From Simkaniaceae bacterium (lineage in GTDB: Bacteria; Chlamydiota; Chlamydiia; Chlamydiales; Simkaniaceae), in contig JBFWSA010000019.1 in the NCBI GenBank assembly GCA_050248615.1, positions 1-45,453 on the forward strand: a DNA stretch of 45,453 nt. The letters are read 5' to 3'. Position numbers and translations under genes: made by a program. Shown in pieces: positions 591-26,907 of this stretch (the first letter of the stretch is position 1; every line of letters begins with the position of its first letter). The notes under the pieces are model-generated. The model was not told the origin of the DNA, ran no database searches, and worked only from the letters and a program-made list of their open reading frames with translations.

Positions 591-3500
591 TCAAAGAGAG
601 GGGTTTTGGGCAAGATACCGTGCTGTATAAGAGGTGGGGTGCTTGGCCACGGCTTCGGGGGTGCCGGCTGTCACGAGGGTTCCTCCCTCTTCGCCGGCGT
701 CGGGGCCGAGGTCGATCAGATAATCGGCGTTGCGCATGATATCTAAGTTATGCTCGATGATCACAACGGTATTTCCTTTGTCGACGAGGGAGTGAAAGAT
801 GGGAAGGAGTTTAGCGATATCGTCTGCGTGAAGTCCAATGGTGGGTTCATCAAAAAGGTAAAGGGTTTTTCCCGTTCCCCGTTTGGCGAGTTCTCTTGAA
901 AGACGCATCCGTCCCGCTTCTCCCCCTGATAGGGATTGAATTTCTTGTCCAAGGGTTAAGTATCCCAGTCCTACTGAAATGAGGGTTTCTAAGGTTTTTT
1001 GCAATTTAGGAATAGGGGGGAGAAATGTGGTGGCTTCTTCAACGGTTAAGTGGAGGAGTTCTCCAAAATTTTTCCCTTTATACTTCACATTTAAGCTGAG
1101 GGGATTGAGGCGATTGCCTTTGCAGGCATCACAGGTCACTTTAAGGGAGGGAAGGAATTGTAAGCGGATAGTTTTAAAACCGAGTCCCCAACAAGAGCGA
1201 CACATTCCTTTGAGATGGTTATAGCTAAAATGTTTAGGCTTCAAACCGCGGGCTGCCGCTTCAGGAAGGGAAGCGAAAAAATGGCGTAGGGGAGCGTTGG
1301 CTTCACTATAGGTACTCACATCGGCACGGATGGTTTGTCCAATGGGGTTTTGGTCGATGGCGATGAGTTTATTAAAGGCAGAAAGACCCGAAAGGGTGGC
1401 CCCTTCGACTTGAGTAGTATCGCTCGTTGAACGGGTGGCTAAATGGGTTTGTACCCCTTTTTTCACGATGTCATGCATGAGTGTCGATTTTCCTGAACCT
1501 GAAACGCCTGTCACACACGTGAAAACGCCTAGGGGAATTTGAACGGAGAGGTTCTTGAGGTTGTGTTTAGTGGCATTTTCTATATTGAGGAAGGATTTGG
1601 CTTTCCTTCTTTTTTGGGGAAGAGGGAGGGTTTTCTTTTGACTGAGGTAGGCACCGGTCAGGGAGTTTTTGTTCTTTTTAATTTGCGCAAGGGTTCCTTG
1701 GGCGGTCATCTCTCCCCCTAAGCGTCCTGCGGCAGGGCCAAAGTCAAAGATGTGATCGGCAATTTCCAAGGTGAGGGGATCATGTTCAACCAGTAAGAGG
1801 GTATTTCCTAAATCTTTGAGTCGTATTAAGGCTTCGTTGAGGCGCTTGTTGTTGTGGGGGTGGAGTCCAATCGTGGGTTCATCAAGGACGTAGAGACACC
1901 CCGTGAGACCACTTCCCAGTTGACGGGCTAAGTGAATGCGTTGGGTTTCGCCTCCGCTGAGTGTGGGAGCACTACGGGAAAGGGCTAAATAATCGAGTCC
2001 AATGTGGCAGAGAAAAGAGAGGCGATTTTTGAGTTGGTCCAGAATGTCCTGTAGTTCTTTGGAGCCTGGAATTTGTGTGATGAAATCTAACGCTTCTTTT
2101 AGAGGGAGGTCGCACAATTTCCCGATCGTCATCTCTCCGATGCGCACATGGCGTGCTAGAGGGTTTAAGCGCTCTCCTGCACAAGCGCGGCAAGGCGTTT
2201 GCTCTAAGAGGGGGAGAATCGATTCTTTTAAGGAGCGCACTCCCGCCTTTCCTATTTTGGCAAAGGTGGCATTGATCCCCACCCATTTGAGTTCCATTCC
2301 GTCGTAATTGAAGTAATGGGGAGAGCCATTCAGAAGGATTTGGAGTTGTTTAATGGGGAGTTTGTAGAGGGCGCTATCGGGATCGATGGCTTCTTCTTTC
2401 AAAAAGGCTAAGAAAACATCTTCCGCAAGATCTGTTGCCTCTTCTTTCCATAGCTTCATCATGAGATTGTAAGGGGAAAGGGACATGATTTTGTCGTGAT
2501 GCAAAATATTGGCTCCCCATTCGAAACCAAGTCCTAAGCAATCGGGGCACATCCCTTCGTCTGCATTGAATGAGAAGGTGTGTGGGGTGAGGGGGGGATA
2601 GGTTTTTCCGGTGCTCGGAACGGCAAAGGCTAAGTTATAGAGGGTATCTTTTTCATCTGTTGCAATGGTAAAGGGTTCTTTGGTGAGGCGTGTCGCTTGT
2701 TCAATGGCTTCAAAGAGGCGTTTTTCAATACCAGGGCGAATCGCAATGCGGTCGACAACGAGAAAGAGGGTATTTTTCCGATTGGGTTGATAGGGAATCT
2801 CTTCATCAAGTTTGTAATACTCTCCGTTAAGGCGGATACGTAAGAAACCTTGTTGCGTAAGATTTTCCTGAATTTGTTCTAGCGTTTCTTGGCGACTCAC
2901 CTGGATGGGGGAGAGGATGTGGAGGCGTGTATTTTCAGGAAGTGCCATCAGATGATCGACAACGTATTCTTTGCTGATCGCTTCAATCTTTTCACCGGTC
3001 TCGGGGCAGTAGGCAGTTCCCTTGTGGGCATAAAGGAGGCGCAGAAAGTCATAGACTTCTGTCATCGTTCCAATCGTGGAGCGGGGGTTTCCTGCATGGT
3101 GTTTTTGTTCAATGGCAATCGAAGGGGAGAGTCCCTCAATTTCTTCTACCTTGGGTTTGGGCATTTGTTTCACAAATTGACGCGCATAAGAGGAGAGGGA
3201 TTCAATGTAGCGTCTTTGCCCTTCGGCATAAATCGTTTCAAAAGCAAAAGAGCTTTTTCCCGATCCAGAAGGGCCTGTGCACACAGAAATTTTTCCACGC
3301 GGAATTTCTAGACTGAGGTTTTTTAAGTTATTCTGATTGCATCCATAGGCTTGGATAGAGCTTAGGGGCTTTGTTGAGGAAGGGAGATGTTTACGGGGCT
3401 CTTTCTTTTTTGCGTTTAAGGCTACACCTGTCGGGGTCGAACGTTTGGCTAGGGATTCTGGAGTTCCACAATCGAGGATTTCTCCTCCCCCTTTTCCCCC

Positions 3501-6218
3501 TTCAGGCCCTAAGTCAATGATCCAGTCGGTGGTTTTGACAAGGTCCATATTGTGTTCGATCACAAGGACAGTATTTCCCGCGTCCACTAGGTGTTGCAGA
3601 ATCGCAATCAACTTGCGAATATCATGGAAGTGAAGTCCGGTAGTGGGTTCATCGAGAATATAGAGGGTTTTTCCTGTTGCAGGACGGATCATTTCGCGTG
3701 CGAGCTTAATACGCTGAGCTTCTCCTCCTGACAGAGTGGTGGAAGATTGTCCAAGGGTAATATAGCCCAAGCCAACTTCCTTCAGGAGGGATAGCTTGCG
3801 CTCGATTTGGGGAATATTTTCAAAGAAAAGGAGCCCTTTTTCAACAGTCATTTCTAAGACATCGTGAATGCTCTTTTGTTTATAGAGGATAGAAAGGGTT
3901 TTGGGGTCAAAGCGTTTTCCTTCGCAAAGGGGGCAGGTGATCCAAGCGTCTTCTAAGAAATCCATATCTAAACGGATCATTCCCATCCCGCGACATTCGG
4001 TGCACGATCCCTCTTGGACATTAAAGCTAAAGCGTCCCGGTTTAAACCCTGCCGCTTGACTTTCGGGGAGTTTGGTAAAGAGATCGCGGATATCGTCAAA
4101 GACCTTAATATAGGTACTGGGGTTAGAGCGGGGGGTTCTCCCAATAGGAGTTTGATCGATTGCAATCACTTTATCTAGGTGCTCAATTCCCGTGATTTTT
4201 TTGTATTTCCCTACCTTGTGTTCCGCGCGGTGGAGGTGGTTGGCTAAAGCGGGATGGAGAATATCGGTAATTAAGGAAGATTTTCCTGAACCCGAGACAC
4301 CGGTGACTGCGACGAATAATTCTAAGGGGATATCCACTGTCACCTGTTTCAAATTGTGATGCTCAGCACCTACAATGGTGAGTTTCTTTGCTGTTGGTTT
4401 ACGCCGCTTTTTCGGAATAGGAATCGTTTTCTTCCCCCCTAAGTAATCGCCTGTTAGGGAGCGGGGAGCCTGAATCAAATCGGCAATTTTACCTTGAGCA
4501 ACGATTTCTCCTCCGAGAGATCCCGCTTCAGGACCAATATCGACGATGTGATCGGCAGCCTCCATCGTCTCTTCATCATGCTCTACAACGATAATGGTAT
4601 TCCCCCGGTCACGGAGAGACTCTAAAGTAGCGATGAGTTTGGTATTATCGCGGGGATGAAGGCCGATAGAGGGTTCATCTAAAATGTAGGTCGTTCCCAC
4701 AAGTCCACATCCAATTTGGGAAGCGAGGCGAACGCGTTGCGCTTCTCCTCCCGAAAGGGTGGGGGCTGTCCGTTCGAGCGCAAGGTAATAGAGTCCCACA
4801 CTCAGGAGGAAGGAGAGGCGCTTTTTGATTTCCAAAATTAAATCGTGGGCGATCCTTTCTTCAAAAGGGGTGAGGCGGAGTGTTTCCAAAAAACAGTGGA
4901 CCTCTTCGATCGTCATTTGTGTGAGCTCATGAATCTTTTTCCCTCCCAGTTTAGTCGCTGCGGGGTAGGGTTTGATGCGCGCTCCCTTGCATTCGGGGCA
5001 AGTCGTTTCATGCATGAGCGTTCCCATTTTATTGCGATAGACGTCACTTTTGGCTTCTGAAAACCGCTTTTTTGCTTCGTAAAGGATCCCTCGCCACTGG
5101 ATATACTCGGTCCAAACCGTTTTTTTCTCAGGATGGACAAAGCGCATCTTCGTCCACTTTTTTTGATTTCCATACAGGAAGATCTTTTGGGCACTGGAAG
5201 AGAGTTTTTCCCAAGGGGTATGAACGCTGAATTTATAGAGGGTCGCTAAGTTGTTATAGACATTGCCCCATTTCACGGTTTGGTAGGAGCTAGCAATTGC
5301 GCAACAATCTTCAGCAATACTCAAGTGGGGATCGATAATTTTTTCTAAGTCAAAATCTTGGATGATGCCAAGCCCTTCACAAGTCGGGCACATCCCTGAG
5401 GGGTGGTTAAAAGAAAAATCTTGGGGTTCGAGAGGGGAGTAAGAGATTTCCGATTTTTTTGCGAAGGCATGTTCTGAAAAAAGGGTTTCTTGTTTGTCAG
5501 AAAGGTTGAGGATGCTCATCACCCCTTGACCGAGTTCGAGGGCACGCTCAACGGCTTCTGCGACTCTTTTCCCTTCCCCTTTTTTTAAAAGGATACGATC
5601 GATCACTAAATCGATGTCATGAGCCGTTTTTTTATCCACCTCTAGGGGCTGTTCTAAATCGACAATTTCTCCATCGAGGCGAATCCGCATAAATCCTTTA
5701 CGCATCAGTTCTTCGAAAAGATCTTTAAATTCCCCCTTTTTTCCTTTGATATGGGGGGACAGAATGATGAGCTGGGATTTTTCGGGGAAGTTTTCAATTG
5801 TCGCAATGATGCGCTCAGCACTTTGGGGCTCTACTTTTTCTCCACTTACAGGGCAGTGAGGGGTTCCCACACGCGCAAAAAGGACACGTAAGTAGTCGTA
5901 GATCCCTGTAATGGTGCCCACCGTCGAACGGGGATTACGCCCCGCTGTTTTTTGTTCAATCGCGATGGTCGGAGAGATCCCTTCGATCAGATCTGCTTCG
6001 GGCTTGGGCAAATTACCCATATAGCGACGGGCGTAGTTGGAGAGGGATTCAATGTAGCGCCGTTGCCCTTCAACATAAATCGTATCAAAGGCAAGAGAGG
6101 ACTTTCCCGATCCAGAGACTCCGGTGAAAACAATAAAAGTTCCCGGATCAAGCTTTAGGTTTATCCCTTTTAAATTATGAACGCGTACGTTCTTAAGAGA
6201 GATCGATTGCTTTTCCAT
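591..6218 (-). CDS. uvrA: Excinuclease ABC subunit A, double-length chlamydial type (two fused UvrA units)
   Basis: 1875 aa with four Walker A motifs (GxSGSGKS), four LSGGE signatures and zinc-finger CxxC motifs. Confidence 0.97.
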   Translation of the reverse strand: MEKQSISLKNVRVHNLKGINLKLDPGTFIVFTGVSGSGKSSLAFDTIYVEGQRRYIESLSNYARRYMGNLPKPEADLIEGISPTIAIEQKTAGRNPRSTVGTITGIYDYLRVLFARVGTPHCPVSGEKVEPQSAERIIATIENFPEKSQLIILSPHIKGKKGEFKDLFEELMRKGFMRIRLDGEIVDLEQPLEVDKKTAHDIDLVIDRILLKKGEGKRVAEAVERALELGQGVMSILNLSDKQETLFSEHAFAKKSEISYSPLEPQDFSFNHPSGMCPTCEGLGIIQDFDLEKIIDPHLSIAEDCCAIASSYQTVKWGNVYNNLATLYKFSVHTPWEKLSSSAQKIFLYGNQKKWTKMRFVHPEKKTVWTEYIQWRGILYEAKKRFSEAKSDVYRNKMGTLMHETTCPECKGARIKPYPAATKLGGKKIHELTQMTIEEVHCFLETLRLTPFEERIAHDLILEIKKRLSFLLSVGLYYLALERTAPTLSGGEAQRVRLASQIGCGLVGTTYILDEPSIGLHPRDNTKLIATLESLRDRGNTIIVVEHDEETMEAADHIVDIGPEAGSLGGEIVAQGKIADLIQAPRSLTGDYLGGKKTIPIPKKRRKPTAKKLTIVGAEHHNLKQVTVDIPLELFVAVTGVSGSGKSSLITDILHPALANHLHRAEHKVGKYKKITGIEHLDKVIAIDQTPIGRTPRSNPSTYIKVFDDIRDLFTKLPESQAAGFKPGRFSFNVQEGSCTECRGMGMIRLDMDFLEDAWITCPLCEGKRFDPKTLSILYKQKSIHDVLEMTVEKGLLFFENIPQIERKLSLLKEVGLGYITLGQSSTTLSGGEAQRIKLAREMIRPATGKTLYILDEPTTGLHFHDIRKLIAILQHLVDAGNTVLVIEHNMDLVKTTDWIIDLGPEGGKGGGEILDCGTPESLAKRSTPTGVALNAKKKEPRKHLPSSTKPLSSIQAYGCNQNNLKNLSLEIPRGKISVCTGPSGSGKSSFAFETIYAEGQRRYIESLSSYARQFVKQMPKPKVEEIEGLSPSIAIEQKHHAGNPRSTIGTMTEVYDFLRLLYAHKGTAYCPETGEKIEAISKEYVVDHLMALPENTRLHILSPIQVSRQETLEQIQENLTQQGFLRIRLNGEYYKLDEEIPYQPNRKNTLFLVVDRIAIRPGIEKRLFEAIEQATRLTKEPFTIATDEKDTLYNLAFAVPSTGKTYPPLTPHTFSFNADEGMCPDCLGLGFEWGANILHHDKIMSLSPYNLMMKLWKEEATDLAEDVFLAFLKEEAIDPDSALYKLPIKQLQILLNGSPHYFNYDGMELKWVGINATFAKIGKAGVRSLKESILPLLEQTPCRACAGERLNPLARHVRIGEMTIGKLCDLPLKEALDFITQIPGSKELQDILDQLKNRLSFLCHIGLDYLALSRSAPTLSGGETQRIHLARQLGSGLTGCLYVLDEPTIGLHPHNNKRLNEALIRLKDLGNTLLLVEHDPLTLEIADHIFDFGPAAGRLGGEMTAQGTLAQIKKNKNSLTGAYLSQKKTLPLPQKRRKAKSFLNIENATKHNLKNLSVQIPLGVFTCVTGVSGSGKSTLMHDIVKKGVQTHLATRSTSDTTQVEGATLSGLSAFNKLIAIDQNPIGQTIRADVSTYSEANAPLRHFFASLPEAAARGLKPKHFSYNHLKGMCRSCWGLGFKTIRLQFLPSLKVTCDACKGNRLNPLSLNVKYKGKNFGELLHLTVEEATTFLPPIPKLQKTLETLISVGLGYLTLGQEIQSLSGGEAGRMRLSRELAKRGTGKTLYLFDEPTIGLHADDIAKLLPIFHSLVDKGNTVVIIEHNLDIMRNADYLIDLGPDAGEEGGTLVTAGTPEAVAKHPTSYTARYLAQNPSL

Positions 6219-6262: not shown

Positions 6263-8065
6263 ATGCGTACGAGAACAAAAATTATCTGTACTTTAGGTCC
6301 TGCGACGAAGAGTTATGAAAAAATTTTACAACTCATTGATGCGGGAATGAATGTGGCGCGTATTAATATGAGTCATGGAACCCATGAAGAGTATTTAGAG
6401 ACGATAGAACTTTTAAAAAAGGCGCGCGCGGAAAAGAAGGTCCCTTTAGCTATTATGCTCGATACCAAAGGTCCTGAAGTACGTGTGGGGCATTTAGATG
6501 AGGGGTTTATTGCTCTTGAGAAGGGGCAACATCTTAAAATTACAAAAAATCCTCAGAAAGGGGAAATTACCATTACCCCTTTTTCTGTTATCAAAGACAT
6601 TAATCACGGAGCGCAAGTTCTCTTTGATGATGGGTATATTACCTCAAAAGTGGTGGAGAAACATCCCGATTTTCTGGTGGTAGAGATCGAAAACCCCGGA
6701 GTCCTTAAGTGTCATAAAGGGGTTAATATTCCCCATGCAGACCTCGATCTTCCTGCAGTGACTGAGCAAGATGAAAGGGATATTGCTTTTGGGTGCAAAC
6801 ACGGGATGGATTTACTGGCCGCTTCCTTTATCCGGAGTGCGGAACATGTTTTAACGATCAAAGGGCTTTTGGCAGAACATGGGGGGAGCCATGTTTTGGT
6901 CATTTCGAAAATTGAAAATGCTTTAGGAGTCAAAAACTTTGATAGTATTTTGCAAGTCTCAGATGGAATCATGGTCGCGAGAGGGGATTTAGGGGTAGAG
7001 CTTCCAGTGACACACATCCCGAAGCTTCAAAAGGTGATGATTCGCAAATGTTATCAATCTTTTAAGCCCGTGGTGACAGCAACGCAAATGCTTGAGTCCA
7101 TGATTAACAGCCCCCGTCCCACCCGAGCTGAAGTCTCAGATGTTGCGAATGCGATCTATGATAGTACATCAGCTGTCATGCTCTCAGGAGAAACGGCAGT
7201 GGGTAAGTATCCTATAGAAACCGTTAGACTCATGAAGAGTACTATTCTTGAAGCTGAAAAGGATTTTCATTATGAAGACTTTTTCTATAATGACGCTGCA
7301 CGCCAAGTATTTAATGACATCTCCTCCTCTGTAGCATTAGCGGCGGTAAAAACTGCCTATAGTGCCCATGGAAAGGCTCTTGTTGCCCTTACAACGAGTG
7401 GATTTACAGCGCGCATCATGGCTCGATTCCGCCCCAGAATGCCCATTATTGCAGTGACTCCCAATGAAAACACTTACCACCAACTCGCTTTTATTTGGGG
7501 AACGGTTCCTGTTCATGCCAAAGTCGGGAATGTCAAAGAGGGAGTGCAACGCGCCAGTTGTTATATGCTCACCAACAAGTTAGTCCGATATGGAGATTTG
7601 ATGGTGATCACGTCGGGAACTCCTTTTGGGATTACCGGGACGACAAATGTGATGCTTGTTGATAATATTGGAGACGTTCTCGTCAGGGGGCTTCCAGGAA
7701 AAGGGAAAAAGGTTCATGGAAATGTGACCCTCCTTCTGACTGTTGACCCCCATACAAAACATGAGACACAAGGGAAGCTTGTTGCCTTATCCCACTGTGA
7801 TGAAGCATTTGAATCCCATTTGAGAGGTTCTTTGGGGATCATTCTCCAAAACCACCCAGATGACACCCATTCTGAAGAGCAAGCAAAAGAGATCGCTCAG
7901 CACTTACACATTCCCCTCCTTGTGCGTGCGGATGGGGCGTGCACCATTTTGAAAGAGGGGCAGATGGTCACACTTGATCCCATCAAAGGGCTGGTTTTTG
8001 AAGGGATTGTGGAATCTGAGGATGAAATGCTTCATCAAGTTTGTAAAATGAACCTATCCCACTAA
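6263..8065 (+). CDS. pyk: Pyruvate kinase with C-terminal PEP-utiliser (swivel)-like domain
   Basis: Motifs RTKIICTLGP, DTKGPEVR, DGIMVARGDLGVE, TATQMLESM and AVMLSGETA. The last five residues (MNLSH) and the stop are encoded by element A1. Confidence 0.97.
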   Translation: MRTRTKIICTLGPATKSYEKILQLIDAGMNVARINMSHGTHEEYLETIELLKKARAEKKVPLAIMLDTKGPEVRVGHLDEGFIALEKGQHLKITKNPQKGEITITPFSVIKDINHGAQVLFDDGYITSKVVEKHPDFLVVEIENPGVLKCHKGVNIPHADLDLPAVTEQDERDIAFGCKHGMDLLAASFIRSAEHVLTIKGLLAEHGGSHVLVISKIENALGVKNFDSILQVSDGIMVARGDLGVELPVTHIPKLQKVMIRKCYQSFKPVVTATQMLESMINSPRPTRAEVSDVANAIYDSTSAVMLSGETAVGKYPIETVRLMKSTILEAEKDFHYEDFFYNDAARQVFNDISSSVALAAVKTAYSAHGKALVALTTSGFTARIMARFRPRMPIIAVTPNENTYHQLAFIWGTVPVHAKVGNVKEGVQRASCYMLTNKLVRYGDLMVITSGTPFGITGTTNVMLVDNIGDVLVRGLPGKGKKVHGNVTLLLTVDPHTKHETQGKLVALSHCDEAFESHLRGSLGIILQNHPDDTHSEEQAKEIAQHLHIPLLVRADGACTILKEGQMVTLDPIKGLVFEGIVESEDEMLHQVCKMNLSH

Positions 8066-8380
8066 TCCATTTCCAGTATTTTTTGCCTTTTCTGCTGATT
8101 TTTCCCTTCATTTTGAGGCCTTGTCTATTTGACAATGTCCTCAAAATGAAGGAAAAAAATCTTCAAGAAAAACCTATAGCTAGATTTGTTTAAAATTGGG
8201 AAGATTTATCTGGATCTTTCCGTTGTCTTTCGACTTCTTAAAATCTCTCCTTGTCTGATGGACAATGTTTTCGATTTTAAGAAGCCAAAATCCATCAAAA
8301 ATCTCTCACCTAAATCCTCCCAATTTTAAACAAATCTAGCTATAAAAACCCCCTTAAATGGATTAGTGAGATAGGTTCAT
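8048..8380. mobile_element. Palindromic MITE-like element A1, interrupted by nested element D
   Basis: 25-bp TIR ATGAACCTATCCCACTAATCCATTT (24/25 match). Central hairpin TTCATTTTGAGG-CCTTGTC-TATTT-GACAATGT-CCTCAAAATGAA. Length is 165 bp after removing D. Near-identical to 24424-24568 in the opposite orientation. Confidence 0.9.
8175..8344. mobile_element. Palindromic MITE-like element D, nested inside A1
   Basis: Perfect 27-bp TIR TATAGCTAGATTTGTTTAAAATTGGGA. Central hairpin CTTCTTAAAATC..CCTTGTC-TGATG-GACAATGT..GATTTTAAGAAG. TA at both ends. Confidence 0.9.
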
Positions 8381-8467
8381 AAATCATAATAATTAAAATA
8401 ATTTTTATTTTTGTTTTTAATTACATAATAAATATAATGTCGCCATTAGTTAATTAAATGGTGTGTT

Positions 8468-9250
8468 ATGGCGTCAATTAAAGACTTTTCTTACCGCAAA
8501 GCAGATTTCTTTGGCCCTCAGGCTGATCAGCTTACAGATTTACTAGGGTCAGTACCCATTGAGCATTTCATTGCGGGGTGTGACGCCCCAAAAGTTCGAG
8601 CCATTAATGCTTTAGCCGAGGCGCGTGTCCTGTGTCAGGAGTGGCCTGAGTGGCAGCGAGAAGATGGTTCTCTTATCTATGATAAACTCCCCGAAAGTGT
8701 AAGAAAAATTTTTAAACCCTCTTATCTCGATGCCAAAGGGTATATAGATATTCAAGGGTTACAAATCTTCGAAAAATACACACTCGTTGGTTGCGCTCGA
8801 CACCAAAAAATAGCAAGTCATCTCGAATCGCCCTGGGATCGTCAAGATGTAGAGGAAATGGTGGCCTGTCCTTCCCTTGCGATACGTTTGCAACAAGGGC
8901 CTGGTTTTGATCCTAGGGAGCATCAAGAAATCCTTCTAGAGGAGACTCCAACGCTTACCCTAAAACGGGAAGGGATCCTAGTTCCTTTATATCGCAGTTT
9001 AAGTGACCTTATTGAGGGGAGATCTAAAGATGCTCAGGCAAATGGGGAAATAGCCCGTTTCCAAAAGATTTGGGATTATGCGATTGCCCAACCCCAACTC
9101 GACGTTCCCAAACAAGAGGAAGGCTCTCCTTCATATCTCATGCCTACTGTTATCGGGTTGTCTTTATTAGGCCTGATCACTCTAGCCGGACGAAACATAC
9201 ACTTACGGTTCTCTACCATCGTCTCGAAATGTTTGCCCACTTTCAAATAA
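8468..9250 (+). CDS. Hypothetical protein with C-terminal membrane anchor
   Basis: 260-aa ORF after an AT-rich promoter-like region (TATAAT near 8433). Hydrophobic segment YLMPTVIGLSLLGLITLAG near the C-terminus. No family recognised. Confidence 0.75.
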   Translation: MASIKDFSYRKADFFGPQADQLTDLLGSVPIEHFIAGCDAPKVRAINALAEARVLCQEWPEWQREDGSLIYDKLPESVRKIFKPSYLDAKGYIDIQGLQIFEKYTLVGCARHQKIASHLESPWDRQDVEEMVACPSLAIRLQQGPGFDPREHQEILLEETPTLTLKREGILVPLYRSLSDLIEGRSKDAQANGEIARFQKIWDYAIAQPQLDVPKQEEGSPSYLMPTVIGLSLLGLITLAGRNIHLRFSTIVSKCLPTFK

Positions 9251-9465
9251 AAAGGCTTTTGCAACGCGAATAACTTTTGGGCTAAGACTGATCCAGCTAT
9301 GGCCAGCCCCTACGACACAATGTTCATGAGGGGTATTTAAGAACGTTTCTTTGACGGCGACTTTTCCATCATTGCTCTCTTTAATAAAAGGGTTAAACCC
9401 TAGATTTCCTGCAATCACGAGAACCTTTTTGGTAGGGGGAAATGGTCCCAAGTGTTGGAAGTTGG

Positions 9466-9629
9466 TATACTCAAACAACTTCAAAAGTTGGATTTTCGGC
9501 TGCGCCAAAGCACCGTAATTTGCCGATCTTAAAAGACCTCATATTTCTAATATTAGGTCTTTTAAGATCGACGAATTCCGAAAGCTTTCGCGCTAGCCCA
9601 AAACCAACTTTTGAAATTGTTTGAGTATA
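9466..9629. mobile_element. Palindromic element B1 (ERIC-like termini)
   Basis: 26-bp TIR TATACTCAAACAAYTTCAAAAGTTGG (25/26). Central hairpin GATCTTAAAAGACCT..AGGTCTTTTAAGATC. 160 bp plus a duplicated TA. Confidence 0.92.
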
Positions 9630-9660
9630 AAATCCATGAGCTCAGCCCCCGCATAGTCTC

Positions 9661-9829
9661 CTAGTGCCTGATCGTAAAAGTCCTTGCAGTAATTTTTGCG
9701 TGAAAGACCCGCGATTGAACTCCCGAAAAGCGCACTGTATTGCATTAATACAGCGTGCTTTTCGGAAGCTCAAGCCCGGGAACTTTGACGCTAAAAATTC
9801 TATGAAGGACTTTTGCAATCAGGCACTAG
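9661..9829. mobile_element. Palindromic element C
   Basis: 25-bp TIR CTAGTGCCTGATYGYAAAAGTCCTT (23/25). Central hairpin CCGAAAAGCGCACTGTATT-GCATT-AATACAGCGTGCTTTTCGG. Net insertion of 165 bp at C-TA-G. Confidence 0.92.
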
Positions 9830-10183
9830 AATCCAACGAAAAAAAGGATAATTTTTCAGTTTTCTTGCAAAAATAGCCCCTTGATTCGGGGGAGCAATTA
9901 AGACTGCTTTTCCCCTTTTGGCTTCTTCAGGACAGTCAGGATGATTGAGAGCTGCGCGCACAATGATCCCTCCGAGAGAATGAGTAATGAAATGGATCGG
10001 GAGTCCAGGGCGTCTTTCTGCAATAGCTTGGAGCATTTCGATGAGATCTTCGGCATGCTCTTCGATCCTCTTTTCTCGACTCGGATATCCCCAATTCACC
10101 ACTTCCCATCCGCAGGTTTCAAACGCCTTTTCAATCCGAGACATGTTTCGATGAGTACGCAAGAAGCCGTGAACACAGACAAG

Positions 10184-10347
10184 TATACTCAAACCATTTC
10201 AAAAGTTGGTTTTGGGCTAGCGCGAAAGCTTTCGGAATTCGTCGATCTTAAATGACCTCATATTTCTAATATTAGGTCATTTAAGATCGGCAAATTACGG
10301 TGCTTTGGCGCAACCGAAAATCCAACTTTTGAAGTTGTTTGAGTATA
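10184..10347. mobile_element. Palindromic element B2 (inverted copy of B1)
   Basis: Its reverse complement matches B1 apart from a few substitutions and a flipped central core. 160 bp plus a duplicated TA. Confidence 0.92.
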
Positions 10348-10446
10348 ATTCTTGTCCGTTCACACTACTTGTTCCTAAAATCAAAAAAATGCAAATAAGT
10401 TTTATCAATTTCTGCATATCTGTTAGTGTAGCAAAAAAGGTTTTTT

Positions 10447-12795
10447 ATGAGATTTGTTTCAAATTTAAAAGATTTAAGAATCGGTGATGTTCCTTTAGTG
10501 GGAGGAAAAAATGCTTCTTTGGGCGAAATGATCAGCGCTTTAGAAAAGAAGGGTATTCAGGTTCCCCCAGGGTTTGCGATCACAGCTGAAGGCTACCACT
10601 TTTTCATTCAAGAAAATGGGTTTCAAGAGAAGATTGAAGCGCTCCTTAATGAGTTGAAAAGGGATCCTCAAGCGATTCGTAAAGTGGGAAAAACTCTACG
10701 CAAACTCATCATGAAGGGAGTGATTCCTCCTGATCTCGAAAAAGAAATTGCAGAGGCCTATAGCGCTTTAGGGGAAGATGTTGATGTTGCTGTGAGAAGT
10801 AGTGCAACTGCAGAAGATCTTCCCGACGCAAGTTTTGCTGGGCAGCAAGAGACCTATCTCAATGTCTACGGAGAAAGAGATCTCCTTGTCGCCTGTGTCA
10901 AATGTTTTGCCTCTCTTTTTACCGATCGGGCGATTAGCTATCGAGAAGAGAAGGGGTTTAAACACGAAGAAGTAGCTCTTTCGATCGGCGTCCAAAAAAT
11001 GGTCCGGTCTGACTTGGCTTCCTCCGGGGTGTTATTTACGATTGATACCGAAACCGGTTTTGATCAAGTGATTGTGATCAATGCTACCTGGGGACTTGGA
11101 GAAAATATCGTTCAAGGGTTAGTCACCCCAGACGAACACCTCGTGTATAAGCCTCTCCTTCAGAAAGAGGGAGTTGTTCCCATCGTTGGCAAGAGTTTAG
11201 GGACCAAAGAACTTAAGATGGTTTATGGAAAAAGTGGCCTTTTCCCGACAAAAAATACAGAAACCACTCAAGAAGAAAGAGAGACCTTTTGTCTTTCTGA
11301 GGAAGAAGTCCTCACTTTGGCTAGGTGGGGAGTGATCATTGAAAATCACTACCAAAAACCGATGGATATCGAATGGGCCAAGGATGGAAAAACAGGAGAA
11401 CTTTTTATTGTTCAAGCGCGCCCAGAAACTGTCCAGTCGCAAAGAAAAAATGGGGATTTTCATACCTATACCCTGAAAGGAAAGGGAGAGGAACTGACCT
11501 ACGGACTGGCTATTGGAGAAGCGATTGTTTCTGGCAAGGTTCAAGTGATCAAAGAGGTGGATCAAATAGAAACCTTTGTAGAGGGTTCCATTTTAGTCAC
11601 CCCCATGACCGATCCCGATTGGGTTCCGATCATGAAGAGGGCCAAGGGAATCATCACTGATCAAGGGGGACGCACCTCACATGCTGCGATCGTCAGCCGG
11701 GAGTTAGGGGTGCCTGCAATAGTAGGAACAGGAAATGCTACAGAAGTTTTGGCTTCTGCCGATCTAATCACGATGTCCTGTGCTGAGGGAGATCGCGGGA
11801 TCATTTATAAGGGAGCGATCCCCTTTGAAGAGAAAGAGGTCCATGTGCAGGACCTCCCCAAAATAAAGACCCAGGTGATGTTAAATATCGCCAGTCCCCC
11901 TGCTGCTTTCCGGTGGTGGCGTCTTCCCTGCCAGGGGGTGGGGCTAGCACGGATGGAGTTTATCATCAGTGATATCATTAAAATCCATCCGATGGCCCTT
12001 GTCCATTTTGATCGAGTGGAAGATAAAAAAGCGCAGATGCAGATTTCACATCTCACGCGGGGGTATGATGACAAGAAAGAGTATTTTGTCGAATTACTTT
12101 CTCTGGGAATAGGAAAAATTGCCTGCGTGCAGTATCCCCATCCTGTGATTGTTCGGATGAGCGATTTTAAAACTAATGAATATGCGAATTTAATTGGGGG
12201 GCGCATCTTTGAGCCCAAAGAAGAAAATCCTATGCTAGGATTCCGTGGGGCCTCTCGGTACTATAATCCCAAATACCGGGAGGGATTTGACTTAGAATGT
12301 CAGGCCATTAAACGGGTACGGGAGACTATTGGTCTGAATAATGTCATTATTATGATCCCTTTTTGCAGAACCCTCGAGGAAGCAAAACAGGTCCTAAAGG
12401 TATTAGAAGAAAATGGTCTTAAGAGAGGAGAAATTGAAATCTATGTGATGGCTGAAGTTCCCTCCAATATCATTTTAGCCGCAGAGTTTGCAGCCCTTTT
12501 TGATGGGTTTTCTATTGGGTCGAATGATTTAACTCAGCTCATTTTGGGAGTCGATCGGGATTCCGCAGATCTTGCCCCTCTTTTTGATGAGCGCAATCCT
12601 GCGATCACCTCGCAAATTGAAAAACTGATTCAAATCGCTCATGAGAAAGGGTGCAAAGTGGGCATTTGCGGACAGGCCCCCAGCGATTATCCTGAATTTG
12701 CAGAGTTTCTCGTGAAATGTGGGATCGATTCCCTCTCACTAAACCCCGACAGCGTCATCCCCACCATTCAACTCCTTGGTAAACTGGAAAAGTGA
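10447..12795 (+). CDS. ppsA: Phosphoenolpyruvate synthase
   Basis: Motifs VGGKNASLGEM, VAVRSSATAEDLPDASFAGQQET, GGRTSHAAIVSRELG (phospho-His) and FSIGSNDLTQ. Confidence 0.97.
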   Translation: MRFVSNLKDLRIGDVPLVGGKNASLGEMISALEKKGIQVPPGFAITAEGYHFFIQENGFQEKIEALLNELKRDPQAIRKVGKTLRKLIMKGVIPPDLEKEIAEAYSALGEDVDVAVRSSATAEDLPDASFAGQQETYLNVYGERDLLVACVKCFASLFTDRAISYREEKGFKHEEVALSIGVQKMVRSDLASSGVLFTIDTETGFDQVIVINATWGLGENIVQGLVTPDEHLVYKPLLQKEGVVPIVGKSLGTKELKMVYGKSGLFPTKNTETTQEERETFCLSEEEVLTLARWGVIIENHYQKPMDIEWAKDGKTGELFIVQARPETVQSQRKNGDFHTYTLKGKGEELTYGLAIGEAIVSGKVQVIKEVDQIETFVEGSILVTPMTDPDWVPIMKRAKGIITDQGGRTSHAAIVSRELGVPAIVGTGNATEVLASADLITMSCAEGDRGIIYKGAIPFEEKEVHVQDLPKIKTQVMLNIASPPAAFRWWRLPCQGVGLARMEFIISDIIKIHPMALVHFDRVEDKKAQMQISHLTRGYDDKKEYFVELLSLGIGKIACVQYPHPVIVRMSDFKTNEYANLIGGRIFEPKEENPMLGFRGASRYYNPKYREGFDLECQAIKRVRETIGLNNVIIMIPFCRTLEEAKQVLKVLEENGLKRGEIEIYVMAEVPSNIILAAEFAALFDGFSIGSNDLTQLILGVDRDSADLAPLFDERNPAITSQIEKLIQIAHEKGCKVGICGQAPSDYPEFAEFLVKCGIDSLSLNPDSVIPTIQLLGKLEK

Positions 12796-21791: not shown

Positions 21792-22973
21792 TTAGAAATC
21801 GAGTCTGGCTTCTCCAGTAATCCCGTAAAACATCAGATCTTCAGACTGCTTTTCAAAGCGTTGATTAAGAAGGATGTTTGCAAAGGCTTGACCACCACCG
21901 GCTCCAAGATTAAACTCTTCTGGAAGATTGAATTGGTTAATTCTCCAGTAGTACTGAACTTCATAACCGAGCTTCAACCCCACATTGAATTTATTGTTAT
22001 TAATGCGGCGATCCCAACCCAGACCTAGGAACATCTGCGCAAAGGGCACATACCGATGGAATTTATCGGTGAGTTTATAAATTCTTTGATTATCAGTGAG
22101 AAAATTAATCCCTTGAAAGAAGGGAAGAAATTCTCTGTGTAGAGATTTAAAGCTACCATAGAGAATGGAGGCTGCAACATCCCCAAAGATGTGAAATCCA
22201 TACCCTAAAGCCCATTTGCTATCGAGACCTGCTCGAGGACCAATTCCCCAGAAAGTCATCCGGTTTTTCGCTTTAAAGTCTAGCCCACCTAGAATACTAA
22301 AGTTTGTAGGATACCCTGATAGAGTATAAGTCGTGTTTTGAGTGAGGTCAATCCACGCTGACTTAACATCAAAGTGAGGGCGAAGAGAGACTTTGCTACT
22401 GATCGCATAGCTTCTTCCCAGCTCCAATTCCACGTTATTATAGTCCACATTCATATGGGACTTAGCGTGAGATGCTGGAAGGGAAATAAAGGTTCCTAGA
22501 GAAAGTAACATGCTAGGAGCGGCTTTAAAGGAGGAGTCGCTATCCTCAGTTTGGTACCACGTATAGTGGGCATAAAGATCCCAACAATCATGAGGTAATT
22601 TATAACCAAGGCCTACTTTTACCCCCATATCCCAGTCAAAATCGACCTCTTTAACATCTCCATCAATGGGGAATGTAGGGGTGTTTTGGTTAAGGCCTGG
22701 AGCTCCCCAGCTCTGAATACTATAAGCATATTCAGTTCCACCGAGTTTGGCGTGCCAGTACGTTAAATCAAAAGTCACAAACCAATTTCCTGGAACATCC
22801 GGATTGGCTGTGACAAAGCCCGCACCCAAAGTTCCCTGAGGGTTACGTGCAGAGACCTCTTGCATCTCTTTTTCCAAAATATCTAGTCTATCATCTAGAC
22901 CAGCATAAGCGAGTGATGATAAAACCGTAGAAAAAGCGATCGCAGAGGAAAGCTTTGTAAGGTGACGTTTCAT
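21792..22973 (-). CDS. MOMP-like outer membrane porin 1 (Legionella OMP/Lpg1974-like)
   Basis: Start moved to MKRHLTKLSS (GGAG RBS, matches the paralogues). Signal peptide, beta-barrel pattern, GPRAGLD, GYEVQYYW and a terminal Phe. Confidence 0.88.
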   Translation of the reverse strand: MKRHLTKLSSAIAFSTVLSSLAYAGLDDRLDILEKEMQEVSARNPQGTLGAGFVTANPDVPGNWFVTFDLTYWHAKLGGTEYAYSIQSWGAPGLNQNTPTFPIDGDVKEVDFDWDMGVKVGLGYKLPHDCWDLYAHYTWYQTEDSDSSFKAAPSMLLSLGTFISLPASHAKSHMNVDYNNVELELGRSYAISSKVSLRPHFDVKSAWIDLTQNTTYTLSGYPTNFSILGGLDFKAKNRMTFWGIGPRAGLDSKWALGYGFHIFGDVAASILYGSFKSLHREFLPFFQGINFLTDNQRIYKLTDKFHRYVPFAQMFLGLGWDRRINNNKFNVGLKLGYEVQYYWRINQFNLPEEFNLGAGGGQAFANILLNQRFEKQSEDLMFYGITGEARLDF

Positions 22974-23015
22974 TTTGAGACTCCCTAAATAATACATAAT
23001 CTACCCTTAAAATCC

Positions 23016-23044
23016 TCTATATGATATAACAGGACTTTTTGCAA
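23016..23044 (-). promoter_or_regulatory. Sigma66/70-type promoter of porin 1
   Basis: TTGCAA-N17-TATAGA; the same hexamers and spacing recur at 26953-26981. Confidence 0.65.
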
Positions 23045-23063
23045 TTTATTATTATTATTTTCT

Positions 23064-23094
23064 AAAAAGAAAGCAGGAGAGCATCCTGCTTTCT
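23064..23094 (-). terminator. Intrinsic terminator after porin 2
   Basis: Minus strand AGAAAGCAGGA-TGCTC-TCCTGCTTTCT followed by a T-run. Confidence 0.75.
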
Positions 23095-23106
23095 AGGGTA
23101 AATTGT

Positions 23107-24288
23107 CTAAAAATCGACGCGAGCTTCTCCTGTAATTCCATAGAACATGAGGTCCTCAGACACCTTTTCAAAGCGTTGTTGACGGACAACGTTGATTAAT
23201 TCTTTGCCAAAAGCATTGCCTTGATTGTATTCTCCAGGAAGATTAAATTGATTAATTCTCCAGTAATACTGAACTTCGTAACCGAGTTTCAAGCCTAGAT
23301 TGAACTTATTGTTATTGATGCGACGATCCCAGCCAAGACCTAAGAACATCTGCGCGAAGGGGATATACCGATGGAACTTATCGCTGATTTTATAAATTCT
23401 TTGGCTATCTGTATGGAAGCTAATTGTCGCAAACAGAGGGACAAATTCTCTGTGGAGAGACTTAAAGTTTCCGTAAAGAATAGAGGCTGCTACATCTCCA
23501 AAGAGATGAAATCCATATCCTAAGGCCCATTTGCTATCGAGACCTGCTCGAGGACCAATTCCCCAGAAGGTCATCCGATTTTTTGTTTTGAAATCTCCCC
23601 CCCCTAGATTGTCGAAATTTGTAGGATATCCTGATATAGTATAAGTCGTATTTTGTGAGAGGTCAATCCAGGCTGACTTTACATCAAAGTGAGGGCGCAG
23701 GGAAACCTTACTACTAATCGCATAACTTCTGGCGAGTTCTAATTCGACATTATTATAGTCGACATTCATATGGGATTTCACATGAGATGCTGGAAAGGAA
23801 ACAATCGATTTTAGAGAAAGCAACATACTGGGGGCTGCTTTGAAAGAGGAGGCACTATCCTCGGTTTGATACCAGGTATAGTGTGCATAGACATCCCAAT
23901 TGTCATGGGGTGTTTTATAGCCAAGACCCACTTTTACCCCCATATCCCAGTCAAAATCGACCGCTTTGACATCCCCATCGATAGGGAATCTAGGGGCGCT
24001 TTGTTGAATACCTGGGGGGCCCCAGCTTTGAATGCTATAAGCATATTCCGTACCACCGAGTTTGGCATGCCAGTACGTTAAATCAAAAGTCATAAACCAG
24101 TTTCCTGGAACATCCGGATTGGCTGTGACAAAGCCCGCACCCAAAGTACCCTGAGGGTTACGTGCGGAGATCTCTTGCATCTCCTTTTCTAAAGTATCTA
24201 ACCGGTCATCTAGACCCGCATAAGCGAGTGAAGATACAACCGTAGAAAAAGCAATCGCAGACGAAAGCTTTATAAGGTTATAATTCAT
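23107..24288 (-). CDS. MOMP-like outer membrane porin 2
   Basis: Close paralogue of porin 1, with long identical DNA blocks and a terminal Phe. Confidence 0.88.
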   Translation of the reverse strand: MNYNLIKLSSAIAFSTVVSSLAYAGLDDRLDTLEKEMQEISARNPQGTLGAGFVTANPDVPGNWFMTFDLTYWHAKLGGTEYAYSIQSWGPPGIQQSAPRFPIDGDVKAVDFDWDMGVKVGLGYKTPHDNWDVYAHYTWYQTEDSASSFKAAPSMLLSLKSIVSFPASHVKSHMNVDYNNVELELARSYAISSKVSLRPHFDVKSAWIDLSQNTTYTISGYPTNFDNLGGGDFKTKNRMTFWGIGPRAGLDSKWALGYGFHLFGDVAASILYGNFKSLHREFVPLFATISFHTDSQRIYKISDKFHRYIPFAQMFLGLGWDRRINNNKFNLGLKLGYEVQYYWRINQFNLPGEYNQGNAFGKELINVVRQQRFEKVSEDLMFYGITGEARVDF

Positions 24289-24423
24289 TTTGAGACTCCA
24301 TAAATAGTATATAATCTATCCATGATTCAATATTTATTATATAAAAAATATTTTTTCAATTTGTTTTATTAAAAGAAATTTTTTCAATTAATTTAGAGTT
24401 TTATTTGAATATCGATTCGCGTT

Positions 24424-24568
24424 ATGAATCTATCCCACTAATCCATTTAAGGGGATTGTTTTCCTTCATTTTGAGGACATTGTCCAAGAAACAAGGCGTC
24501 AAAATGAAGGGAAAAATCAGTAGAAAAGGCAAAAAAATACTGGAAATGGATGAGTGGGATAGGTTCAT
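24424..24568. mobile_element. Palindromic element A2, immediately after the porin 3 stop codon
   Basis: TIR ATGAAYCTATCCCACTMATCCATTT. Reverse-orientation copy of A1 without the nested insert; 145 bp. Confidence 0.9.
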
Positions 24569-25732
24569 CTAGAAATCGAGGCGAATTTCCCCTGTGATTC
24601 CGTAAAACATGAGGTCTTCTGTTTGTTTTTCGAATTGGATACGCCCCCCTTGGTCCACAGTGGAGACATTTCCAATGATGAGATCTTCGGGTTGGTGGAT
24701 TTGATTCACTCTCCAATAGTATTGAACTTCGTACCCTGCTTTGATTCCGAGGTGTTGTTTAGAATTGTTGATATACTGCTGGTAGCCAAGACCCAGGAAC
24801 ATTTGACCAAAAGGGACGAAGCGGTGAAATTGGCTGCGCACTTTAAAAGCGCGACCATTCGGAAATTGATCGGGGTTTAAACTAGGAGGGATGAAATCTC
24901 GCTGCAGGCTTGAGAACTTTCCATAAAGAATAGAGGCTGCAAAGTCGGCAAAGACATGAAATCCATACCCTAGGTACCATTTGCTGTCGATGCCTGTTCT
25001 AGGTCCTAATCCCCAGAAATTGATCCGTCCTTTTGTTTTGTAATCGAGTCCCCCCAGCCCATCAAAAAAGGTGTTAATACCCGATGCTGTGTAAACCACA
25101 TCTTGATCGATGTCGATCCAAGCCGATTTCACGTCAAAATGGGGGCGGAAAGAGAGCTTACTGCTGACAAAATAGCTACGCGCGAGCTCTAATTCGACAT
25201 TATTATAGCTCACTTCAATCGTCGATTTTGCTTTTGAAGCGGTCACAGGAAGGATAAAGGTTAAAGAGATCAGTCCACTCGGAGCCGCTTTGAAGGAAGA
25301 GCTTGTGTCATCTGTTTCATAATAGGTATAGCGTGCATAGAGGTCCCATTTATCATATGGGGTTTTGTAGCCAAGTCCTGCTTTTACTCCGATATCCCAA
25401 CCGAAGTCATGTTCTTTAACATCTCCATCTATGGGGAAAGCAGGCATTCCTTGGGTGTTGTTAAAACCGTTGAAGCTGTAAGCATATTCTGTTCCTCCCA
25501 TTTTGGTATGCCAGTAGGTGAGATCAAAAGTGACAAACCAGTTCCCTGCTTTTACCTCTGGACGTGCGGTATAAAAGCTGGCACCTAACGTCTGTTGAGG
25601 GTTACGGGCTGAAATTTCCTGCATCTCTTTTTCTAAGACTTCTAGGCGATCTTCTAGATCGGCATAAATAGCTGTCGATAAGCTGAGGGAAAGAGCTAAG
25701 CAAGAAGAGAGCTTTAGAACGTTTTTTTTCAT
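24569..25732 (-). CDS. MOMP-like outer membrane porin 3
   Basis: Paralogue with EKEMQEISARNPQ, GGTEYAYS and EDLMFYGITGEIRLDF. Confidence 0.88.
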   Translation of the reverse strand: MKKNVLKLSSCLALSLSLSTAIYADLEDRLEVLEKEMQEISARNPQQTLGASFYTARPEVKAGNWFVTFDLTYWHTKMGGTEYAYSFNGFNNTQGMPAFPIDGDVKEHDFGWDIGVKAGLGYKTPYDKWDLYARYTYYETDDTSSSFKAAPSGLISLTFILPVTASKAKSTIEVSYNNVELELARSYFVSSKLSFRPHFDVKSAWIDIDQDVVYTASGINTFFDGLGGLDYKTKGRINFWGLGPRTGIDSKWYLGYGFHVFADFAASILYGKFSSLQRDFIPPSLNPDQFPNGRAFKVRSQFHRFVPFGQMFLGLGYQQYINNSKQHLGIKAGYEVQYYWRVNQIHQPEDLIIGNVSTVDQGGRIQFEKQTEDLMFYGITGEIRLDF

Positions 25733-25758
25733 CTTTTGAGACTCCTGAAAATATTTGG

Positions 25759-26907
25759 CTAGAAATCTAGTCTGATTTCACCCGTAATTCCGTAGAACAT
25801 CAGATCTTCCGCCTGTTTCTGGAACTTAAAACCAATGCTTCCATTTTGACTCGAATCTAATAGGAAGTCTTCTGGCTGGTGAATTTGGTTCACTCTCCAG
25901 TAGTATTGAACCTCATACCCTAGTTTTAAGCCGAGATGTTGTTTCTCATCATTAATATACCGTTCCCAGCCAAGGCCTAAGAACATCTGCACAAAGGGAA
26001 CAAAGCGATGAAACTTATCTCGGACTTTGTAGGCGACTCCATCAGGAATGATGGCTGGAGCTGTATGGGGGGGGAAGATATTCTTTTGAATCGTGTTGAA
26101 GTAGCCATAAAGAACCGATGCGGCAACATCTCCAAAAATATGGAAGTCATATCCTAAATACCACTTGGTATCAAACCCTGCACGGGGGCCCAAGCCCCAA
26201 AATTTCAAATGTTCTTTGGCTTTGATATCGAGTCCTGCAAACGCAGCGCCGGGGCTTGCTACCCCTGAAGCGGTATAGACAACGTTTGTATTGATATCAA
26301 TCCATGCAGCTTTCATGTCGATATGGGGACGAAAAGAGAGCCTTCTACTGATGAAGTAGCTTCGACCCAGTTCTAGCTCTACATTATTATAATCGATGTT
26401 GATGTGAGATTTTGCAACGTTACTGGTCAGTCTAAAGTAAAGGTTTAAAGAGATGAGAGTGCTAGGGGCCGCTTTATGGGAACTGGCGCTGTTTTCTGTT
26501 TCATACCAGGTATAGCGGGCGTAGAGATCCCATTTATCATGCGGAGTTTTATAACCCAGACCTGCCTTCAAACCGATATCCCAGCTAAAACTATTATCTT
26601 TCGTATCCCCATCTAGAGGAAGTCCTGTATTCGTTCCTCCATTTTGAACGCTATAAGCATATTCAGTCCCCCCCATCTTTGCATGCCAATAGGTCAGATC
26701 AAACGTTGCAAACCAACGCGTTCCGTCTACTTCAGGTCGCGCAGTTGTAAAACTGGCTCCAAGTGTATCTTGTGGATTTCGCGCTGAGATCTCTTGCATT
26801 TGTTTTTCTAAATGATCGATGCGGTCTTCATATCCTGCCTGGATAGAACCGATTGCAATCGTAGAAAAAGCTGAGAGAGAGATCAGCTTAAAAAGAGAGC
26901 TTTTCAT
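25759..26907 (-). CDS. MOMP-like outer membrane porin 4
   Basis: Same motifs as the other porins. Lies 26 bp from porin 3, so likely co-transcribed. Confidence 0.88.
   Translation of the reverse strand: MKSSLFKLISLSAFSTIAIGSIQAGYEDRIDHLEKQMQEISARNPQDTLGASFTTARPEVDGTRWFATFDLTYWHAKMGGTEYAYSVQNGGTNTGLPLDGDTKDNSFSWDIGLKAGLGYKTPHDKWDLYARYTWYETENSASSHKAAPSTLISLNLYFRLTSNVAKSHINIDYNNVELELGRSYFISRRLSFRPHIDMKAAWIDINTNVVYTASGVASPGAAFAGLDIKAKEHLKFWGLGPRAGFDTKWYLGYDFHIFGDVAASVLYGYFNTIQKNIFPPHTAPAIIPDGVAYKVRDKFHRFVPFVQMFLGLGWERYINDEKQHLGLKLGYEVQYYWRVNQIHQPEDFLLDSSQNGSIGFKFQKQAEDLMFYGITGEIRLDF

Follow-up and report, generated by a model that had tools for sequence, protein, structure and literature searches.

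A hydrolase gene interrupted by three hairpin elements in a Simkaniaceae bacterium is most likely a young MITE-inactivated pseudogene

ERIC (RU-1), YPAL (RU-2), Correia and RUP elements are short, non-coding MITEs with terminal inverted repeats that form stable stem-loops, duplicate a TA target and lie mostly between genes or at their 3′ ends (PMC2759123, PMC3184786). Inactivation of genes by MITEs is documented, and the long hairpins of Correia elements are described as being cut, not spliced (PMC10969869). Rickettsia palindromic elements (RPE) are ~150-bp palindromes found inside protein-coding genes (PMC10969869). Non-coding hairpin inserts within open reading frames with intact flanks are represented by the cassettes of T4 gene 60 and the byps of yeast mitochondria; bypassing requires matched take-off and landing codons together with a stop or hungry codon after the take-off site, the gap being ~50 nt in T4 (bioRxiv 10.1101/2022.08.31.505936). 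Mobile hairpin elements within genes also occur in IStrons and in the MITE-carrying group I intron of Thiomargarita dsrA, where the surrounding group I ribozyme makes the insertion harmless (PMC4853749).

Here, we analyze a hydrolase gene of a Simkaniaceae bacterium that harbors three hairpin elements, termed B1, B2 and C. It is located in a 45,453-nucleotide stretch (contig JBFWSA010000019.1), which we refer to as the window. Like ERIC, YPAL, Correia and RUP, the B and C families duplicate TA, can form hairpins and are mostly intergenic, and their length of 164-169 bp is close to the ~167 bp of YPAL. Compared by eye, the B terminus equals the first seven bases of the Salmonella RU-1 sequence given in PMC2759123. 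A blastn search with B1 gave no match in 5,426 genomes of ERIC-bearing E. coli at E values up to 10, so the 127-bp body of ERIC is not recognizable in it; by this comparison B is not an ERIC copy, only its terminus resembling ERIC/RU-1. The host is another difference, since it belongs to a chlamydial lineage and chlamydiae are absent from the MITE review. While RPE are in frame and translated in functional genes, B and C carry two to four in-frame stops and avoid conserved genes. The T4 gene 60 and byps inserts share with B and C the non-coding hairpin between intact coding flanks, but compared with T4 gene 60 the gaps are longer (162-165 nt), the codons are matched in only one of three cases and no adjacent stop is present. 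In contrast to the IStrons and the dsrA intron, B and C are single hairpins without an Rfam intron match. A chlamydial-symbiont paper from 2026 discusses IS-driven pseudogenes and, in the parts considered here, not such MITEs (PMC13229535). Outside subscription papers and bioRxiv supplements, we found no report of the B and C families in chlamydiae or of spliced bacterial MITEs.

Anatomy of the interrupted gene and its rejoined product

A preliminary description of the window had placed B2, C and B1 within one hydrolase gene, and the coordinates, element ends and junctions were all reproduced (Table 1). As claimed there, a 726-bp frame that encodes 241 amino acids and has no internal stop results when each element is deleted together with one TA (162, 165 and 162 bp). 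Precise removal presumably restores the frame because the insertion adds an element and a TA and destroys nothing. Misassembly was ruled out, as the same junctions are seen in contigs from independent runs.

Table 1. Features of the interrupted hydrolase locus, listed in the direction of hydrolase transcription with the divergent neighbor last
Feature	Position in the window	Strand	Remarks
Hydrolase segment 1	10348..10417	-	start codon to codon 24; hydrophobic N-terminus, likely signal peptide
B2, hairpin MITE	10184..10347	.	164 bp including both TA copies, net 162 bp; 4 in-frame stops (TAA, TGA, TAG, TGA)
Hydrolase segment 2	9830..10183	-	HG and HSLGG motifs; Pfam Hydrolase_4, E 6e-9
C, hairpin MITE	9661..9829	.	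169 bp, CTAG...CTAG, net 165 bp; 3 in-frame stops; TA duplicated inside the CTAG target
Hydrolase segment 3	9630..9660	-	31 bp between C and B1
B1, hairpin MITE	9466..9629	.	164 bp, net 162 bp; 2 in-frame stops; inverted relative to B2
Hydrolase segment 4	9203..9465	-	NDG and GH motifs, stop codon
PEP synthase/PPDK-family gene	10447..12795	+	divergent neighbor (context); also adjoins the intact G001 orthologue

With the elements in place, the gene contains nine in-frame stops, among which TAA, TAG and TGA are all represented; each element contributes to them on the coding strand, as had been stated. The first one, inside B2, ends translation after 40 amino acids. B1 and B2 are both bounded by TATA, 95% alike and oppositely oriented. 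Stops are present in 17 of the 18 frames of B1, B2 and C, which have terminal inverted repeats and contain no transposase. Each element had further been expected to fold into a hairpin that brings its flanks together. This is what the predicted RNA folds show for the isolated elements, which form full-length hairpins of -80 to -100 kcal/mol, but not for the whole message, in which B2 is predicted to pair with B1 over 156 bp instead of each element folding on itself. As inverted, near-identical copies 554 bp apart, B1 and B2 could also recombine and invert the enclosed segment, or mobilise it as a composite unit.

The rejoined protein shows 65% identity over 230 amino acids to an uninterrupted orthologue in a genome of the same genus (G001). 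This alignment is gap-free at all three junctions, and the orthologue is syntenic, located beside ppsA like the interrupted gene. None of 105 full-length homologues carries an insert at any of the three sites. All 45 columns conserved in at least 90% of these homologues are kept in the rejoined protein, including HG, HSxGG, NDG, S93, D187 and H210, the latter three of which probably represent its catalytic Ser-Asp-His residues. Of the earlier claim of a signal peptide and an intact HG/HSLGG/NDG/GH set, the motifs indeed occupy conserved columns, whereas the signal peptide is a judgment by eye. A Pfam Hydrolase_4 match above the cut-off was obtained in the gene, and the homologues are labeled in their sources as chlamydial proteins, EstA-like alpha/beta hydrolases or “triacylglycerol esterase/lipase EstA”. 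By domain and Ser-Asp-His motifs, the product would be classed as an EstA-like, lipase-like alpha/beta-hydrolase. A PDB sequence search with the orthologue as query returned 0 matches.

The hydrolase gene was found in 10 of 60 relatives; it is an accessory gene of patchy distribution. No element-free allele of this species is present among the 120 protein homologues listed (best 75%) or in the JGI metagenomes (best 73%). Synonymous sites are saturated relative to the orthologues (pS 0.79), and dN/dS is uninformative for the terminal branch.

Elsewhere in the window, four tandem paralogues of the Legionella_OMP family (21792-26907) contain a hairpin element in one of the gaps between them (24424-24568), and a 170-bp TA-bounded hairpin (8175-8344) is nested in a member of another hairpin family (8048-8382). 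Positions 591-6218 encode a doubled UvrA of 1875 amino acids, a chlamydial trait.

The B and C families and their distribution in the genome

Counting copies of 120 bp or longer, the genome (2.04 Mb in 69 contigs, 96% complete) contains 52 of B and 8 of C. When hairpins 110-199 bp long were searched for de novo, 177 were recovered, which fall into 18 families and 7 singletons. Although the size range covered was this wide, 150 of the 177 are 155-182 bp long, and families with the ends of different IS families (IS630, DDE_Tnp_1/IS5-like, IS982) share both this length and the foldback over the whole length. Two families other than B and C have ends in common with a DDE_Tnp_1 remnant and an IS982 remnant of this genome. 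Within the B family, 5-10 copies share changes in the central loop (positions 75-89) that look as if the loop had been inverted between its arms; paired changes on both arms are seen in several copies. A diverged B copy on another contig (C11:8230-8393) is open in one frame and lengthens the upstream ORF by ~55 codons, an RPE-like 3′ fusion.

Candidate parent elements were found in relatives. B occurs with up to 92% identity in a genome of another genus (G022); it was not found in the same-genus genome G001. G022 contains an uninterrupted IS630 transposase frame (NF033545, 219.8 bits at a cut-off of 100), flanked on both sides by TA-bounded ends. Compared with the B terminus, these ends are identical at 19 and 22 of 26 bases; a 19-base match was reached by 0.7% of 962 random 200-bp windows. 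A second IS630 element of 1.2 kb, present in several copies in G396, has CTAG at the start of its ends, which agree with C at 16 of 20 bases, and C-type ends are paired ~1.2 kb apart at no fewer than four places listed in that genome. Because their ends match these IS630 elements, we classify B and C as IS630-type MITEs, presumably moved by an IS630 transposase acting in trans. Duplication of a TA target is demonstrated for B1 by the empty-site joint described below (162 bp, TA on both sides, three runs); for B2 and C, the restored frame points to the same duplication.

A transposase like that of G022 was not found in this 96%-complete genome, which has only a broken DDE_3 remnant; it also contains no Y1 transposase and a mere fragment of IS110. 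C-type ends are spaced ~167 bp apart in G201 and G330; in G347 they lie next to an IS630 fragment. The C family is thus also present in other chlamydial families. Partial B matches in 15 stretches of relatives are short hairpins or solo ends between which we saw no transposase. The 21-base B terminus has exact matches at 27 loci in many phyla, including Bacillota, Gammaproteobacteria and other MAGs. These loci are mostly intergenic and continue into unrelated sequence, possibly reflecting a wide superfamily that shares this end; by eye, we noticed no transposase next to them. A search of plasmids gave chance matches only.

In total, 259 element blocks were located in the genome, 141 with TA-type and 118 with non-TA ends. 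Precise removal restores an ORF at 8 of the 141 TA-type junctions, compared to 600 of 800 random TA sites (75%), which corresponds to a ~13-fold depletion of TA-type elements within genes. The eight restoring cases comprise two gene ends (by Pfam coverage), the three elements of the hydrolase gene and three genes without a name; one more such gene, at C6:47875, did not reach the restoring threshold and was added by eye. These four other interrupted genes were found in 0, 7, 2 and 3 of the 60 relatives, respectively, compared to 55 for RsfS as a control, and the case on contig C21 may be close to the gene end. Near PEPCK, nadD-like/rsfS, a Mur ligase, znuA and its ATPase, yebC, ispH and trkH, the elements are located at gene boundaries. 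The TA of a stop codon is used by 12 of the 141 elements, near the 7% share of such sites. Among the non-TA blocks, 16 of 118 have a resolvable duplication, one of which restores an unnamed ORF; the other 102 received a permissive screen by eye only, and coding-like flanks, mostly gene boundaries, were seen at 42 of all 259 blocks. One element lies in an IS30 transposase remnant and two in a transposase remnant on contig C22. Sixteen of the 259 blocks exceed 230 bp, as expected of nested or adjacent elements.

This avoidance of genes is the pattern of lethal or costly insertions that have been purged. The elements do not appear to be freely removable, because removable ones would be expected inside genes at roughly the frequency of their target sites. 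The preliminary description had suggested looking genome-wide for stop-bearing elements that also interrupt essential genes; no conserved gene was found cut in the middle of its coding sequence.

The net insertions of 162, 165 and 162 bp are all multiples of three, as had been pointed out, yet no significant enrichment of such lengths within genes accompanies them. Among B copies of 160-164 bp, 25 of 41 have a net length of 162 bp, the commonest one of the family, and divisibility by three is seen in 48 of 107 full-length TA-type elements. All seven mid-gene TA-type insertions of the genome are likewise multiples of three in net length. For B copies the proportion is 5/5 in genes (four of the aligned set and the one at C6:47875) versus 21/37 elsewhere (Fisher P = 0.14). 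Lengths that are multiples of three are the usual lengths of these families, and the in-gene excess is suggestive at most. Because of the in-frame stops inside the elements, a frame-preserving length is of no use to the ribosome.

Strain variants, age and repeated insertion

At least half of the sampled words are contained in 14 DNA runs, and the contigs of five of these (X1, X5, X9, X13 and X14) were compared. Contigs of X5, X9 and X13 lack precisely the 162 bp of B1 and have TA on either side of the joint, and the depth at this empty joint equals that of the flanking contig (37.6, 6.8 and 5.21, respectively). X1 shows no such joint; its contig enters B1 by 29 letters, just below the 31-letter rule. 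The contigs of X14 lie outside the B1 junction. At the contig level, at which rare variants are dropped, the B1 allele is all-or-none per run. In X1, X5, X9 and X13, a single contig extends from inside C through segment 2 into B2, which it enters by 30 letters in X9 and by 42-44 in the other three. Joints between B1 and B2 (e.g. 9489 to 10324) were disregarded, as they derive from shorter copies elsewhere.

The search for element-free alleles in DNA reads that had been proposed was thus successful for B1, in three of four runs, but among the joints listed (15 of 39 in one comparison and all 3 in another) none was empty of B2 or C. B1 therefore represents a difference between strains and was likely inserted last; alleles that lack it still carry two interruptions, C and B2. 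Strain SNPs within the segments, among the differences listed, are P122P, R36G and M38I; two of the three change the protein, and M38I affects a Met found in 94 of the 105 homologues, which favors a pseudogene, although on a tiny count.

The RNA runs X15-X17 yielded scattered contigs of low depth, none of which spans B2 or C. One contig of X16 contains the B1-empty junction, with 138 letters on one side and 20 loose letters that match 9630-9649 at 19 of 20 positions. We did not accept this single contig with its 20-letter short side as proof of splicing: the same allele is present in the DNA of a hot-spring run (X5), and because the RNA junction equals this DNA allele, no splicing is needed to explain it.

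Next to the intact segments, the elements themselves bear on the age of the insertions. In a simulation, the chance that none of the 45 conserved columns is damaged was 0.56, 0.31, 0.09 and 0.03 at neutral divergences of 0.5, 1, 2 and 3%, so the pristine segments fit a recent death of the gene (0.5-1% divergence) and not one as old as 3%. B1 and B2 show no private differences from the family consensus; B2 differs from it at eight positions, five of them in the central loop and common to 5-10 other copies. The C copy differs from its consensus at 8 of 169 positions, ~6 of which are private among the seven copies compared. If these changes had arisen in place at the rate of the gene, the intact segments would be unlikely; they may predate the insertion or reflect fast change of the hairpin.

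At the rates of non-coding DNA, the neutral mean of further hits in 726 bp is 0.25-0.47, and two further hits in a dead gene of this length have a chance of 3-8% per gene; cruder rates gave 0.7% and 8%. Because two further hits are improbable at neutral rates, some local insertion preference is possible.

Competing explanations and implications

The preliminary description offered two readings, a dispensable gene acting as a sink for MITEs and intron-like elements that are removed or bypassed. Our results support the former: the copy number of the families, their IS630-type ends, the polymorphism of B1, the avoidance of conserved genes and the patchy occurrence of the host gene all agree with it. 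We therefore consider it highly probable that the gene is a young pseudogene killed by MITEs, which were collected one after another with B1 likely last. An IS630 transposase supplied in trans would insert hairpin elements at TA sites. The first hit, by C or B2, would kill the gene and leave the 40-amino-acid fragment as its only product, and later hits would be tolerated because the dead 726 bp had become neutral DNA. No other decay is seen, presumably as too little time has passed.

The reading as intron-like elements found no support, as no conserved gene was found cut in mid-CDS, the adjacent stops and, except at C, the matched codons expected of bypassing are missing and the lengths are not significantly enriched in genes. 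In its general form, it holds that the hairpin MITEs of this lineage are taken out cleanly, either at the RNA level through cleavage and religation or at the DNA level in a subset of cells, and that interrupted genes are still expressed, among them the hydrolase with its undamaged catalytic set and its inserts that keep the frame, which we regard as quite unlikely. At the DNA level, such removal would amount to a reversible switch: precise excision, either catalyzed by an IS630 transposase or resulting from slippage between the TA copies that the hairpin assists, would cause phase variation, with the enzyme present in a minority of cells. The undamaged segments would suit such a switch, and the B1-empty allele is free of a footprint and indistinguishable from a precise excision product. 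Precise excision is moreover promoted by long inverted repeats, as in Tn10. But function would need two or three independent excisions, B1 is at the contig level either present or absent throughout a run, empty joints are lacking for B2 and C among those listed, and the empty allele is more simply read as one that B1 never entered. A DNA switch is thus very improbable.

Even less can be said for an enzyme made from interrupted DNA, either by cutting out the hairpins from the message and rejoining its ends or by ribosomes sliding over them. The isolated hairpins would bring the flanks together, the net lengths are multiples of three, an X16 RNA contig has the B1-empty junction, and the genome contains an RNase III gene and rtcB (C5:53984-55267, an open frame of 473 amino acids). 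However, the ends left by RNase III are not those joined by RtcB, the X16 junction equals the DNA allele of X5, and the elements are ~13-fold depleted in genes, with mid-gene copies found only in accessory ones. No Rfam family was matched by the elements at the gathering score, only generic miRNA-like hairpins, and no reverse transcriptase was found in the genome. Bypassing would encounter matched codons at C only (CTA/CTA), the pairs being TTA/ATA for B2 and TTT/TAT for B1, and in none of the three elements is the take-off codon followed by a stop. An alternative genetic code or readthrough was rejected, since TAA, TAG and TGA all occur in frame and no single recoding rescues it. We consider removal from the message or bypassing extremely improbable. 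A different objection to the pseudogene reading concerns its cause: the locus could be an insertion hot spot, or its loss could have been selected, instead of the gene being a passive sink. The three hits in 726 bp are more than the neutral mean of further hits would predict, and a repeatedly hit locus is known, hns in Acinetobacter (PMC10969869). Selected loss, however, accounts for no more than a lineage's first hit, accumulations of elements are also seen in other dead DNA such as the C22 remnant and the blocks longer than 230 bp, and so far one first insertion is shared everywhere. This possibility, which we rate as highly doubtful, would alter the cause and not the outcome, as the gene would still be dead.

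If the intron-like reading were true, the lineage would possess a tolerance system built from IS630 MITEs that looks protein-free, and bacteria a new way to neutralize transposon insertions. As it stands, the finding opens no new mechanism. It offers a clear view of how a host-associated chlamydial lineage loses a gene through serial, partly strain-specific insertions of MITEs, and it names candidate parent IS630 elements for both the B and the C family. The locus is useful for dating MITE bursts and for genome annotation, in which a gene like this one would be called as fragments.
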